Source of the DNA: Dictyostelium discoideum
Lineage: Eukaryota
Assembly (NCBI GenBank): GCA_000004695.1
Contig: CM000150.2
Location: 2,592,001-2,656,000 of the forward strand
Direction: 5' to 3'
Length of the DNA stretch: 64,000 bases
In this document: positions 30,118 to 35,247 of the stretch, piece after piece
How the letters are laid out: each line of letters begins with the position of its first letter
Position numbering within the stretch: position 1 is the first letter of the stretch
Program-made: the position numbers and the translations under genes
Notes under the pieces: generated by a model
What the model saw: the letters and a program-made list of their open reading frames with translations, nothing else
Told to the model about the DNA's origin: nothing
The model's database searches: none

Positions 30118-33100
30118 TTTTTTAATTTAAAAAAGAATTGATTTTTTTTTTTTTTTTTTTTTTTTTTTTTTTTTTTTTTTTTTTTTTTTTTTAAAAATTG
30201 TTTAAATAAACGTTTTAAAAATATAAAAACAAAAAATAAAATGATAAACGATTTATATAAATGATGGAAATATGAAAAAAATTGTAATTTAAATTAAATA
30301 AACAAAACAAAAATTTTGAAGTTTTGTTTTTTTTTTTTTTTTTAATTTATTTAATTAAATTATTATTAAATTATTATTATTATTTTTATTATTATTATTA
30401 TTATTATTATTATTATTAAATAATTAACAAATAAAAAAAAGTTGATAAAAATTAAAAAGACACACTTATTTAATACAATATTTACAAATTTTAGAAGGTA
30501 TTATACAAAAAACAAAAAAAAAAAATACAATTTTTACTATTGGTAATAATTTCTAAGTTGGTTAATTTATGTGCTATGGACGATGGAAAATAATATTTAA
30601 TTTTAAACTAAAAAAAGAAATTATAAAAATAAATATATAAAAAAATAATAATAAATAAAAATATAAAAAAAGAAAATAAAGATAATATATAAAGGGTGGT
30701 GTGTGTTTAAATGGAAATTTAAAAAAACAATAAAAGATAAAAATAAGATTTATCTAAACAAATAATATTTTGATATTGACGCGTTATTTAGTATTACAAA
30801 TTTAATATTATATTATATTAATTTTTTTTTTTTATTTTTTTATTTTTTTATTTTTTTTTTAATTATAAAAAAAATTATATATGGTATGAATTATAATTAT
30901 AATTTGGAACGAAATAAAAAATAAATTAAAATAAATATTAAATTTATATTATATAAAAAAAAAAAAAAATTTTTGTGTTTTATATAAATAATTTAAAAAT
31001 TAATTAAATCTAATGATAATATTTTTTTTTTTTTTTTTTTTTTTTTTTTTTTTAATAGTACAGTTGTGTAATGGTAGAAGTGATAATATTATAATATTAT
31101 AAATATAACTATATTTATTATTATTATTATTTTTTTTTTTTTTTATTTTTTTTTTGGAATTAAATAATTTTTTTTTTTTTTTTAATTTATAGTAAATGAA
31201 AAAAAATTATTTTATTAAAAAAAAAAAATTTTTTACTTTATGATTATTATTTTTACAATGAATCTTAAAATTTTTTTTTTTTTGAGGAATGAAAAATTTT
31301 TTTTTTTTTTTTTTTTTTTTTTTGGATATTTATACCCAAAAAATTAAATCAAATTTAATAAAAAAAAAAAAAAAGAAAAAAAATTAAAAAATAAAAAAAA
31401 AAAAAAGAAAAAAAAACAATTTAACTAAAAAAATGAATGGAGTACAAAATTATGCAAAAGGTTTTGGTTGATAGTTTTGCAAAGGCCAGAAGAGTAAATT
31501 CCAAATAAAGAAAAAGGGAAATAAAAATAAAAAAAAAATAAAAAAAAAATTAAAAAAAAATATATTAATAATAAAAACCAAAAAATTAATATATAAAAAA
31601 AAAATCTGATTAGTAGGTAACTCAACCTATCTACTGTTGGTGTTGGCACACGCACCACAAAATAAAGGAATATTTTTTTTCACAAAAGTAGTGCCTAACC
31701 TCACCAAACCATTAAATAAAAAAAAAATTAAAAAAAAAAAATAAAAAAAATGAAAAAAAAAAAAAAAAAAAAAAAAAGTAAAATGTGAATGGAAGTGGTT
31801 ACTAAAAAAAATGTTGGTATTGATTGGGCGAGATATTTTTTTTTGACGTGAAAAGACTAAACTTGTATTGATCTTGGTTCAGAATACGTTAATTTTTGAA
31901 AAAACACATTAAAGGAAAAAAAAATAATTATTTTAAATTAAAAAAAAAAAATTAAAAAAAAATATAAAAATTAAAAAATAAAATTAAAAAAATAATCTGC
32001 AAACGGAAAGTCTCTTTTTAGATTCAAATGCCTTTTGGTGGTTTTAAAAAAATATTAAAAAAAAAAAAAAAAAAAAAAATATATTTCAAAAAAAAAAAGA
32101 AACGATTCTTTAGTTTCTGAAATTGTGTAAATAAAACCAATGAAAAAAAAAAAAAAAAAAAATAAACAATCAAATATTTTTTTTTTTAAAAAAACAGTTT
32201 AGAAAAAATATTAAAAAATCATGTTATACCAATTTATTATTTTTGGTGGTTTTTTTTTTTTTTTTTTTTTTTTTTCTCATTTTCCTTTTTTTTCAATCGA
32301 TATTGAATTACTTAAAGGTTTCTTTTTTATTTTATTTTTTAATCTTTACACAAAAACTCATTCTTTTAATTCATTTTTTTAAAAAAAAAGATATAAAATA
32401 TCATGATTCCAATTGGTGTAGTGGAATGATGTGAGTAAATATATTTATTTTCATTTTTTTTTTTTTTTTTTTTTTTTATTTTTTTTTTTTAATAATACTT
32501 ATCGTTTTTATTTTTTTTTTTTTTTTTTAAAACCTTATAAAAAAATGTGTGGTTACATATACAATGATATTTTTGCTATAATTTTTCCAAATAAAAATAA
32601 AAATAAAATTAATAAATTAAATAAAATAAATAATTAATTGGATAATTAAAAAAAAAAAAAATTAATATTAATTAAAAAAAAAAAAAAAAAGTAAACCCCA
32701 AATATCTGTTATTTAAATTAGAAATTTTAGATGTTATTTTTATATATTTTGTTATATATAAAATAACTTATCAACTATTTCGATTTGATTTGTATTTTAT
32801 AGTTGGTTAGTAAAAACAGAAATTTTTAAAATATGTTTTAATTTAAATAATATTATACTTAATTTATCTTCTTTGATTGGTAGAATAATACTTTGGAACC
32901 ATCCATTTTCTGTAAAAATAAATTTGGTTTATTTTTATTAAATGTTTAAACATATCTTGGAAAAAATAAAAAAATAAGATAAAAATAAAAAATAAAAAGA
33001 TTTAACCCCAACTATCAATATAAATTTTAAAATAAATAATAACAAATAAATTTAAATTTTGTTTTAAAAAATAATAATAATTATCTGTTCTAAATAATTA

Positions 33101-35247
33101 AAAAAAAAAAAAAAAAAAAAAAAAAAATGAAAAAAGAAAAAGAATGAAAAAAAAAAAAAAGAATGAAAAACAAATTTGGTCCAATTAAAAATAAATAAAT
33201 TTTAAATAACATGAACATTTAATAATATTTATTTAAAAATACCAATAAAAAAAAAAATTATTAAAAAAAAAAATCCTTTAATTTCCACTGATAAAATCAA
33301 CAAAATATTAAAATTATATATAATTTTATGTTTCTATACATCTTACCAAACTCTAAATGACCAGTTAATCCTATTGAAAGGTAAAAAAAAAATTAAAAAA
33401 AAAAAAAAAAGAAATTAAGGTAATTGATTTTGTTATAAAATTATTTTTTTTTTTTTTTTTTTTAATTTTATTTTTTTATTTTTTTTTTTTGTTAATTTAA
33501 TTTTGAGAAAAAAAAAAAAAAACTCTTTGGTTTTCAATCATTAATGAAATAATTTTAACAAAACCCAAAGCCTGTTTAGTACTAGGTTTTTTTTTTTTTT
33601 TTTTTTTTTTTTTTTTTTTTGAACTTTTAAAATTTTTATTTAATATTTCTTTGAAAAAAAAAATATCATTGCACTTCGTCAAACTTTATAAGCAAAGAAA
33701 AAATAATCTTAAGTTCATTGAGATGCTTTTTTAAAAAATTTTACTCATTGTGCAAATTAGCAGAATAGTTTTGTTTTTGTGTAACGCAAAGTTGAATATC
33801 TATTTTTTCAATGGATAAAATGGCAAATTACAATTTTGAATTTTTTTTCTTTTGGGATTTTTTCTTTTTTTATTTTTTTTTTTTTTTTTGGATATTTTTT
33901 TACTTTAAAACAAAATAAAATGATTGGATCAATGATTAGTTTGAGCTCGATTAAATCTTGGGGGAAAAAAAAAAAAAAAATAAAAATAAATAAAAAAATA
34001 AAAATAAAAAAAAATAAAAAGAAAATAAAAAAAAAAAAAAAAATGATATTTTATTGACAATGTGGTTGTTTAATTTTAACAATGAAAATTTTTTTTTTTT
34101 TTTTCACAAAAAAAAAGAAGAGAAAATAAAAAAAAGAAAAATAAAATAAGAGAAAGGAAAAAAAAAGAAAAAAAAAAAAGAAATAAAAAAAAAAAATAAA
34201 ATAAAAAAAAAAAAAAAGAAATAAAAAAAGGAATAAAAAAAAAAAAAAAAAAAAAAGAAAAAAAAAAAAAAAGAAAGAAAAAAAAAAAAAAAGAAATAAA
34301 AAACTAAATAAAAAAGAAAACAATTTTAACTCCCAACCAAAACCATTTTGATCAATTTTATTATTAGTTAATTCATTATTAGCTCAAGTATGAATTATTA
34401 TTATTATTATTATTATTATTATTATTATTATTATTATTATTATTATTATTATTATTATTATTATTATTATTATTATTATTATTATTATTATTATTATTAT
34501 TATTTTTATTTTTTCTCTTCAATTACTATTTTTATTATTTTATTTTTTTTTTTTTTTTTTTTTTTTTTTAATTCTCTATTATTATTTTTATTATCATTAT
34601 TATTATTTATTTTATTATTATTACTATTTATTATTATTAAAGAAATAAATATTGATTTAAAAAAATAAAAAAAAATGGACTCGTAAAGCAATTGGAAAAA
34701 TTCTTGTTGATGTCATCTTTGCCATTTTAAAAAAAAAAATAAAAATAAAAATAAAAAAATAAAAATAAAAATAAAAAAAACTAAAAAATTGATATAATTT
34801 GATTGACATTCTTTTTTTTTTTTTTTTTTTTATTATTTTTTATTTAATTAATAAACTATTTCATTCTTTAATTATTTTTTTTTTTATTATTTTTTTATTA
34901 TTTTTTTATTATTTTTTTATTATTTTTTTTAATCACTGTGATTACTTTTCTCATTAAATTTCTCTCAAAAAAAAATTTTCAAGTGAGACAAGAGAGAAGT
35001 AACAGCTCTCTAAAATTTTTAGATTTTTTTTTTTAAATAAAAAAAAAAAAAAAAAATTTTAAAAAAAAAAAAAAATTTAAAAAAAAAAAAAAAAAAATTT
35101 TTTTTTATTATTTTATTAAGTTTTACAACAGCCGTTTATATAATTTTTATTCTTATTATAACTATTATATAATTTTTTTATTTTTTTTTCTCATTCCAAC
35201 TAAATTACTATTATCCTTTATAATAAATTTATATATATATATTAAAA
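30118..35247. promoter_or_regulatory. Divergent 5.1-kb AT-rich intergenic region between the stlA start (minus strand) and the rab7 start (plus strand). It presumably carries both promoters. No convincing ORF.
   Basis: The two ATGs face outward at 30117 and 35248. Every ORF-track entry inside is homopolymer or microsatellite-derived (polyF, polyK, polyY). This is inference only; no specific element was identified. Confidence 0.3.
34390..34502. repeat. Intergenic (TTA)n microsatellite of about 37 units.
   Basis: Direct reading. It generates the spurious polyY ORF 34390..34668. Confidence 0.9.

Follow-up and report, generated by a model that had tools for sequence, protein, structure and literature searches.

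The genes stlA and rab7A of Dictyostelium discoideum are transcribed away from each other on chromosome 1, and the long AT-rich interval between their start codons is the subject of the present analysis. The sequence examined, referred to as the window, is a stretch of 64,000 nucleotides (positions 2,592,001 to 2,656,000 of contig CM000150.2, assembly GCA_000004695.1). Positions are those of the window unless a chromosome or another locus is named, and AX4 coordinates are obtained by adding 2,592,000, an offset set by the stlA and rab7A exon coordinates in the supplement of PMC5295588. In that supplement stlA (DDB_G0269364) occupies chr1 2612482-2622117 on the minus strand and rab7A (DDB_G0269236) occupies chr1 2627248-2628493 on the plus strand, with first exons at 2627248-2627277 and 2627446-2627595. 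The StlA product falls into a 90% cluster that contains DDB_G0269364 together with 'Probable polyketide synthase 1' and PDB 2H84 'Steely1', and the spliced Rab7A product of 203 amino acids (aa) matches RAB7A_DICDI. The stlA ATG (30117, minus strand) and the rab7A ATG (35248, plus strand) enclose a divergent intergenic gap at 30119-35247 (AX4 chr1:2,622,119-2,627,247). Its length of 5129 bp agrees with the more than 5 kb between outward-facing start codons reported in an initial annotation of this DNA.

The gap has a G+C content of 12.9%, compared with 24.2% for the whole window, so that the earlier description of the interval as AT-rich stands, although the A+T content is 87.1% rather than the figure of about 90% given there. 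The dozens of homopolymer tracts described earlier are likewise present: 61 tracts of at least 10 nt make up 19.6% of the bases, the longest being 51 nt. The union of arrays detected by Tandem Repeats Finder assigns 43% of the gap to tandem or simple repeat, and runs of at least 20 nt free of G and C account for 46%. It is the longest low-GC run of the window and twice the length of the next, the others measuring 2.4 kb (58778-61217), 1.7 kb (1842-3572) and 1.65 kb (46649-48294); these further runs could be extended regulatory regions or long introns in their own right. Called genes in related loci are spaced 0.14-1.5 kb apart, and the range of 0.2-1.3 kb proposed for genes elsewhere in the window is roughly right but not exact, as other spacers reach 1.6-2.4 kb. 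The gap is free of credible genes, as had been noted; to call it gene-free without qualification overlooks a doubtful gene model in the reference annotation, DDB_G0269366, and one catalogued long non-coding RNA (lncRNA) at 30183-31128 on the plus strand, both of which are considered below.

Orthologues of StlA and Rab7A were used to fetch the locus from nine other assemblies, whose loci are denoted by handles such as L006. The two genes stand head to head in all nine, with gaps of 4930-6154 bp, and together with the window these sequences represent seven lineages, including D. citrinum and D. firmibasis. Identity to the window within the gap is 99.8% for L009, which forms one lineage with the window, 94% for L010 and L011, 92% for L008, 87% for L006, 80% for the two D. 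citrinum assemblies, 75% for L007 and 73% for D. firmibasis. The 6154-bp gap of D. firmibasis (L003/L014) is mostly due to about 1 kb of extra mid-gap sequence which, with a (CCATTCAT)n-type microsatellite, lies opposite window positions ~33290-33425, where D. discoideum has unrelated sequence. L006, L008 and L010/L011 differ from AX4 by 6-13% in the gap and by 6.5-9.4% at four-fold degenerate sites of stlA; L010 and L011 were deposited as D. discoideum, and if L006 and L008 are likewise named, deep lineages are filed under one species. In D. purpureum (L015, GL871080.1, 9216-11390) rab7 is not beside stlA, as small unrelated genes lie upstream of it and SYS1 is kept downstream, and the D. purpureum stlA contig (L004:1-1130) stops 1130 bp upstream of the gene and has no 11-mer in common with the gap. 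Since the neighbours differ there, either the rab7-stlA adjacency is specific to the clade of D. discoideum, D. citrinum and D. firmibasis, or D. purpureum has lost it. The alignment to the syntenic gaps of other strains, one of the checks proposed in the initial annotation, thus yields conserved blocks within this clade and neither adjacency nor a common 11-mer in D. purpureum.

Plain blastn comparisons of the gaps were swamped by low-complexity matches, and the ten sequences (the window and nine assemblies) were therefore aligned globally with MAFFT. The gap resolves into freely varying A/T spacer, in which the lengths of A/T runs and of an (ATT)n array vary in every lineage, and roughly 15-20 collinear blocks of 15-80 nt amounting to about 0.76 kb of conserved sequence altogether. 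The five islands of normal complexity recognized in the initial annotation are all present, and every one of them falls on an inter-species conserved block. As a neutral yardstick, 170 four-fold degenerate sites of stlA were taken from the same ten sequences; 43.5% of these are identical in all ten, as are 84% of first and 89% of second codon positions. The main blocks have 79-100% of their columns identical throughout the ten sequences, and invariant G/C positions make up 72% inside blocks against 13% outside. Binomial tail probabilities against the four-fold rate of 0.435 range from 1e-9 to 1e-14 for the large blocks (1.8e-14 for 31838-31918 and 5.6e-12 for 31990-32036). This significance survives roughly 1e4 implicit trials, though the blocks were picked after inspection. 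When five neighbouring intergenic regions were aligned in the same manner as a control, four contained no block and the fifth contained three.

The blocks are densest in a 0.9-kb cluster at 31251-32130, which lies 1.1-2.0 kb upstream of stlA, and scattered smaller blocks extend to 33768, about 3.7 kb upstream. Closest to stlA is a putative proximal core promoter with 5′ leader (30209-30345, minus strand), in which a T-rich stretch comes after a TATA-like TTTATATAAAT; its conservation extends over the D. discoideum lineages and D. citrinum and is partial in D. firmibasis, with an all-ten identity of only 0.42. Next come blocks at 30538-30578 (all ten sequences agree in 34 of 41 columns) and 30773-30811 (31 of 39, with all seven G/C positions conserved), the latter containing TTGACGCGT at 30776-30784. 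The cluster opens with blocks at 31251-31352 around an invariant TATA-like GGATATTTATACCC (31324-31337), a candidate distal core promoter or factor site, with 29 of 30 columns identical over 31324-31352. It continues with 31428-31500; 31596-31636, which holds the imperfect palindrome TAGTAGGTAACTCAACCTATCTACT (36/41); 31677-31712, with the core TAGTGCCTAACCTC; and 31778-31803, reading GTAAAATGTGAATGGAGGAAGTGGTTACT. The largest block (31838-31918; 70 of 83 columns) carries TTGACGTG at 31843-31850, a GATC and an inverted ACGT-core partner, TACGTTAA, and is followed by 31990-32040 (43/47 over 31990-32036) and by AAACGATTCTTTGATTTCTGAAATTGTGTA at 32100-32130. Beyond the cluster lie the short block AATACTTATCGTTTT (32494-32508), identical throughout at 15/15, ATCATTGCACTTCGTCAAA at 33665-33683, whose minus-strand reading is TTTGACGAAGTGCAATGAT, and a block containing CATTGTGCAAAT at 33741-33768. 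At the far end of the gap, 80-137 nt upstream of the rab7A ATG, a putative rab7A core promoter (35111-35168, plus strand) consists of TTTATATAAT and then a T-rich stretch, with 49 of 58 columns identical in all ten.

A search for recurrent, fully conserved 7-8-mers in the gap gave one pair only, so that the motif evidence is confined to three TGACG pentamers (30777, 31844 and 33677), all conserved in 6-7 of the 7 lineages. TTGACG appears to be the only recurrent motif that can be defended in the gap. The TTGACG sites and the pairing of TTGACGTG with TACGTTAA presumably resemble half-sites of basic leucine zipper (bZIP) factors.

Two natural micro-inversions fall within the gap. The first affects a 26-nt conserved element at 31811-31836 (L009:6580-6605; ancestral form for example at L011:6622-6687), which reads ATATCTCGCCCAATCAATACCAACAT in seven assemblies, is present as the exact reverse complement in the window and in the independent L009, and has lost most of its length in L008. 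An A-run and a T-run, inverted repeats of each other, lie on either side of it, an arrangement that suggests a hairpin- or cruciform-mediated inversion. The element is conserved and yet inverted in place, and therefore looks like a protein-binding DNA site rather than a segment of a functional RNA, as a DNA binding site would tolerate inversion more easily than part of an RNA. The second, with a core of about 11 nt, lies at 34991-35011, about 240 nt upstream of rab7A, in an otherwise conserved stretch (TTTTCAAGTGAGAC...AAAATTTTTAGATTTTT). Here the window, L008, L009, L010 and L011 read AGAGAG-AAGTAACAG-CTCTCT, and L006, both D. citrinum assemblies and D. firmibasis read ...GAG-CTGTTACTT-CTCT, so that the core sits between AGAG/CTCT inverted repeats. 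Small inversions associated with hairpins are best known from chloroplast non-coding DNA; the two events in the gap are similar in that their cores lie between short inverted repeats, and differ in that they occur in a nuclear genome and that one of them affects an element otherwise conserved between species.

Published chromatin data place an accessible site on the cluster. A differential peak from the assay for transposase-accessible chromatin with sequencing (ATAC-seq) at 31563-31963 (chr1 2623563-2623963) is listed with stlA as its nearest feature in Additional file 2 Table S1 of Wang et al. 2021 (PMC8094536), with a concentration of 8.58 in unicellular and 6.57 in multicellular fresh samples (fold 2.01, false discovery rate (FDR) 9e-6). 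This amounts to about 4-fold more accessibility in the unicellular samples. The peak spans five of the conserved elements, namely 31596-31636, 31677-31712, 31778-31803, the inverted element 31811-31836, and 31838-31918. A weaker differential peak upstream of rab7 (34771-35171; chr1 2626771-2627171) was found in frozen samples and is more open in multicellular stages (FDR 0.0245), and a unicellular peak of histone H3 lysine 4 trimethylation (H3K4me3) lies at 29075-29574, within the first kb of the stlA coding sequence (PMC8094536). Expression of stlA over 0-24 h in 2-h steps, in reads per kilobase per million (RPKM), is 28.7, 198.9, 66.9, 39.7, 22.6, 14.4, 11.6, 4.5, 4.6, 6.6, 7.5, 9.0 and 11.1, and rab7A is flat over the same series at 224-542 RPKM (PMC5295588). 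Within 2 h of starvation the stlA messenger RNA (mRNA) is thus up about 7-fold, and it collapses afterwards; the stlA knockout paper (PMC4164351) describes an early and a late peak of expression. The stage-dependent ATAC-seq peak is assigned to stlA because it lies 1.4-1.8 kb from that stage-dependent gene and 3.3-3.7 kb from the constitutive rab7A, and we infer that stlA rather than rab7A is the target of the peak and the blocks.

The gap is syntenic across the clade, is conserved above the local neutral rate at orthologous positions, lacks a coding or structured-RNA signal, and has accessible chromatin that changes with stage, the last according to the published table. These properties make it probable that the gap is an extended, multi-module cis-regulatory region of stlA with the rab7A core promoter at its far end. 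Most of the interval would then be A/T simple sequence free of constraint, varying in exact length from lineage to lineage, and it would hold some 15-20 short DNA elements on which purifying selection is strong. They would fall into a group near the stlA start (30.2-30.8 kb), the cluster at 31251-32130, a scatter reaching to 33768, and the last ~0.55 kb before rab7A, where the motif GATGTCATC (34709-34717) accompanies the rab7A core promoter. On this reading the cluster is a nucleosome-depleted site that responds to stage, and sequence-specific transcription factors would bind the blocks; candidate binders, from motif resemblance, are factors of the bZIP type, at the three conserved TTGACG sites and at those with an ACGT core. 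Factors so bound could establish accessibility during growth and produce the stlA burst at 2 h of starvation, and the same factors may drive its weak late re-expression, with other blocks possibly serving the late phase. The initial annotation had offered an extended developmental enhancer region of the polyketide synthase gene as one of three options, and this is the best supported of them given the conserved blocks and the stage-dependent peak; its non-coding RNA option is supported in part, and a decayed gene or transposon is not supported.

Several points weigh against reading the gap as a regulatory region of stlA. A literature search returned no reporter, deletion or factor-binding data, no mapping of the stlA start site and no link to BzpF. 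The ATAC-seq peak on the cluster reached significance in the comparison of fresh samples alone, and the published tables list differential peaks only. Conservation stops short of D. purpureum, being confined to a young clade; the choice of blocks followed inspection of the alignment, and alignment of the AT-rich sequence between them is unreliable. Blocks of 47-81 nt that are nearly identical exceed single factor sites, and it is possible that another constraint acts on them, for example that of an unstructured RNA. As the inverted element is deleted in L008, it may be dispensable. The assignment of factors is, finally, a presumption drawn from motif resemblance.

A different reading of the same conserved sequence takes GGATATTTATACCC and the stlA-ward stretch 31251-31313 as a second core promoter 1.2 kb upstream of stlA, from which, in one of the two expression phases, stlA mRNAs would acquire another 5′ leader, perhaps a spliced one, with 31428-32130 as the upstream elements of this promoter. 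No other block longer than 15 nt matches the near-complete identity seen over 31324-31352, all seven lineages keep TATAAATA on the stlA-sense strand, and the two peaks of stlA expression (PMC4164351 and the RPKM series) would suit such an arrangement. Dictyostelium genes with several promoters are documented, among them srfA, whose alternative promoters have different 5′ untranslated region exons (PMC5923282), and pdsA, for which the title of Faure et al. 1990, a reference in PMC4164351, gives three promoters. Nevertheless, GGATATTTATACCC is followed by an A-run and not by an oligo-dT stretch. Such a stretch is usual between the TATA box and the start site in Dictyostelium. Moreover, the sole transcript model between GGATATTTATACCC and stlA runs on the opposite strand and shows no correlation with stlA, the unicellular H3K4me3 peak is positioned in the first kb of the stlA coding sequence as expected for a start near the ATG, and no AG acceptor occurs in the ~430 nt upstream of the stlA ATG. 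Because of the lncRNA strand, the H3K4me3 position, the missing downstream T-stretch and the missing acceptor, a distal promoter is considered unlikely.

The possibility of one or more non-coding RNA genes was likewise examined, in the form either that the blocks at 31251-32130 belong to an unannotated RNA conserved for its sequence and not for its fold or that the catalogued lncRNA regulates stlA in cis. That lncRNA (CUFF_332_1 / CUFF_2071_1, DDB_G3974227; chr1 2622183-2623128; PMC5295588 Files S2, S4 and S6) is a single-exon intergenic model, one of 621 lncRNA models of Rosengarten et al. 2016. It adjoins stlA and is transcribed divergently, away from it, with Spearman correlations of 0.036 with stlA and 0.131 with rab7A (PMC5295588). 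The catalogue, made by stranded sequencing of RNA depleted of ribosomal RNA, requires at least 200 nt, a wholly intergenic position and no tiling path to a neighbouring gene. The model at 30183-31128 (plus strand) is the only sequence in the gap to which this definition applies, the catalogue of PMC5295588 having no model over 31129-35247; its lncRNAs have a median maximum of 1.0 RPKM. The model begins in the T51 tract beside the stlA start, runs over sequence that is for the most part weakly conserved, and leaves about 120 nt between its end and the start of the cluster at 31251. Because it lies off the cluster and the ATAC-seq peak and is uncorrelated with its neighbours, it explains neither the length of the gap nor the islands. 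The initial suggestion of a non-coding RNA gene finds partial support in a published transcript model that includes the island at 30540-30600 only, and the islands at 31430-32050 lie outside it.

Searches for other RNA genes were negative. Rfam gave no match at E<=10 over 29500-36000 and none at gathering score across the window, and ARAGORN found no transfer RNA (tRNA) gene in the window. The Dictyostelium upstream sequence element (DUSE; [AT]CCCA[CT]AA) has eight matches in the window, none of them within 30119-35247, in agreement with the initial annotation, which had seen neither tRNA structure nor a DUSE in the islands by eye. The 11-nt class I motif CCTTACAGCAA, allowing up to two mismatches, has six matches, again none in that interval. 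In a search for microRNA (miRNA)-like hairpins in the gap every inverted-repeat pair was an A-run against a T-run, and the supplement of PMC6161686 has no miRNA at the coordinates of the gap. Eleven regions were folded on both strands, and most blocks have z values of 0 to +1 relative to shuffled sequences; the exceptions with z < -2 are the palindrome 31596-31636, the combined region 31590-31720 that contains this palindrome, a stem at 32085-32132 and pairings of A-runs with T-runs. The stem at 32085-32132 is lineage-specific and not conserved in other species. RNAalifold predicted 14 pairs in each of two block sets, none with compensatory changes and two or three of them broken in at least one sequence. 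A scan for bacterial promoters and terminators, which is not relevant to a eukaryote, returned fewer sites than shuffled sequences. Small RNA genes that depend on a DUSE about 60 nt upstream, such as those for class I RNAs and small nuclear RNAs, share with the gap an AT-rich intergenic setting and islands of normal complexity; unlike them, the gap has no DUSE, class I motif, Rfam match or stable stem. What speaks for an RNA gene is the presence of the lncRNA model itself, the length of the 47-81-nt blocks, which at coding-like constraint are long for factor sites, and the origin of D. discoideum small RNAs in AT-rich intergenic regions (PMC11193728). Set against the position and expression of the lncRNA, the negative searches, the absence of excess folding and the block that is inverted in place and deleted in one lineage, RNA genes are quite improbable as an explanation.

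The proposal that the gap is neutral spacer, a product of simple-sequence expansion that has no role apart from the two core promoters, with the blocks as artefacts of alignment or of low divergence, draws on the large repeat and G/C-free fractions given above, on A/T-run and (ATT)n lengths that differ in every lineage, and on the 13% of invariant G/C positions outside blocks. It is already contradicted, and highly unlikely, as the blocks match codon positions 1 and 2 in conservation and exceed the four-fold sites with the binomial probabilities given above, four of the five neighbouring intergenic regions are without a block, and an ATAC-seq peak lies on the cluster. A uniform absence of transcription and of conserved blocks, by which the initial annotation would have recognized such spacer, does not describe the gap, where a lncRNA model and blocks are both present.

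Tests for protein-coding sequence and transposons concern the remaining option, that the islands are relics of exons or of a mobile element. Listing of open reading frames (ORFs) and a six-frame scan of the gap gave solely frames of low complexity that run through A/T repeats; the two longest, of 90 and 92 aa, are poly-F/L/Y or poly-N in character. Ten stop-free island peptides matched no Pfam family, the best (E=0.074) falling below the cut-off, and a look-up of a 77-aa ORF of the gap gave no match. Coding is excluded for the two blocks examined, 31428-31500 and 31838-31918, because they contain stops in all frames or indels that are not multiples of 3; in D. firmibasis, indels of 1, 2 and 6 nt interrupt the short ORFs of 31428-31500. 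No Pfam match pointed to a transposon, and the position of the gap is fixed in all lineages. The reference model DDB_G0269366 (34379-34725, minus strand; chr1 2626379-2626725), known here from the nearest-feature column of the ATAC-seq table, crosses the (ATT)n array at 34394-34639 and reads as poly-Asn. Other D. discoideum lineages carry a deletion of its 3′ end, the motif GATGTCATC is its only conserved part, it is absent from the expression tables searched, and a literature search gave nothing specific on it. A 147-aa gene call of D. citrinum at the corresponding place (L013:8983-9426, minus strand) lies in an (ATT)n/(AAT)n array and is nearly pure Asn; it is the only gene called in the gap among the other assemblies, seven of the nine having no call. 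Both models are judged to be annotation artefacts. Despite the two models, a decayed gene or transposon is scarcely credible, as both are poly-Asn readings of repeat arrays, no island peptide has a Pfam family, and relics would decay instead of remaining 79-100% invariant. As a separate matter, a candidate micro-exon ENGWFQSIILPIKEDKL (~32850-32900, minus strand) was rejected because the stretch is not conserved in D. firmibasis.

Further observations concern sequences outside the gap. The third intron of rab7A (35708-36074) is unusually long at 367 nt, and in it TAGTTTTGCACATATAAAAAAAAATAACGAGTTTTA, AAGTTGTTTGAATTTTCAAGAAAAAA and GTGGCATATGATTTTTTT are kept across the lineages of the D. discoideum clade and not in D. 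purpureum; it has no Rfam match, and the motifs may represent an intronic regulatory element. Just downstream of the rab7A stop, at 36560-36690, a unit of ~62 nt (AAGTCTTTTTAATAAATGATAATAATGGTGATGATGAT...GTTTAATAAAGAGATTAAA) occurs twice in tandem, the number of GAT repeats differing per copy. An exact DUSE-like octamer, ACCCACAA within CACACCCACAA, is located in intergenic sequence at 18911-18918 on the minus strand and precedes by about 105 nt the start codon of a protein-coding ORF (18414-18806, minus strand), with no Rfam match nearby; it is probably a promoter element of that ORF rather than of a non-coding RNA gene.

Phylogenetic footprints obtained by aligning close species are familiar from Saccharomyces sensu stricto and Drosophila. 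The stlA blocks resemble them in being short, ungapped and collinear, in exceeding the synonymous-site rate of conservation, in being separated by variable spacers and in overlapping open chromatin; they depart from typical footprints in that some reach 47-81 nt, in the extreme A/T background and in being conserved within one young clade. Among Dictyostelium loci, stlB and chlA have a common promoter region of 2.8 kb (PMC9489281). Like the regions of srfA, pdsA and stlB, the gap is kilobase-scale AT-rich sequence upstream of a developmental gene with more than one expression phase, and like that of stlB and chlA it is common to a divergently transcribed neighbour. The stlA region is longer than that of stlB, at 5.1 kb, and its modules are defined by conservation and a published ATAC-seq peak alone. 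Regulatory footprints under open chromatin are a standard signature of regulatory DNA, and both the lncRNA and the peak had already been published; the map of blocks, their coding-like constraint, their coincidence with the peak and the natural inversion and deletion variants were not found described in a literature search.

The product of stlA makes 4-methyl-5-pentylbenzene-1,3-diol (MPBD), a polyketide signal required for timely aggregation and spore maturation (PMC4164351), and no description of the mechanism behind the stlA pulse was found in the literature searched. It is rather unlikely that the cluster at 31251-32130 is the template of an unstructured regulatory RNA, or a distal promoter with a leader exon, held under coding-like constraint across the clade and controlling the starvation burst of stlA; if it were, the consequence would be for the control of that burst and hence for MPBD signalling. 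For the preferred reading, a regulatory region of stlA, the result is ordinary in kind and useful in detail, and thinking on how such regions work is unchanged by it. An anonymous 5-kb gap becomes a set of defined, testable elements, comprising the ~0.76 kb of blocks, the 0.9-kb cluster, three TTGACG sites and an invariant TATA-like element, and DDB_G0269366 is flagged as an artefact of the reference annotation. Natural variants could also be compared directly, one element being inverted in the AX4 lineage and deleted in a different one. More generally, newly sequenced genomes of the D. discoideum clade can be used to footprint regulatory DNA where the alignment of intergenic sequence is usually deemed hopeless.

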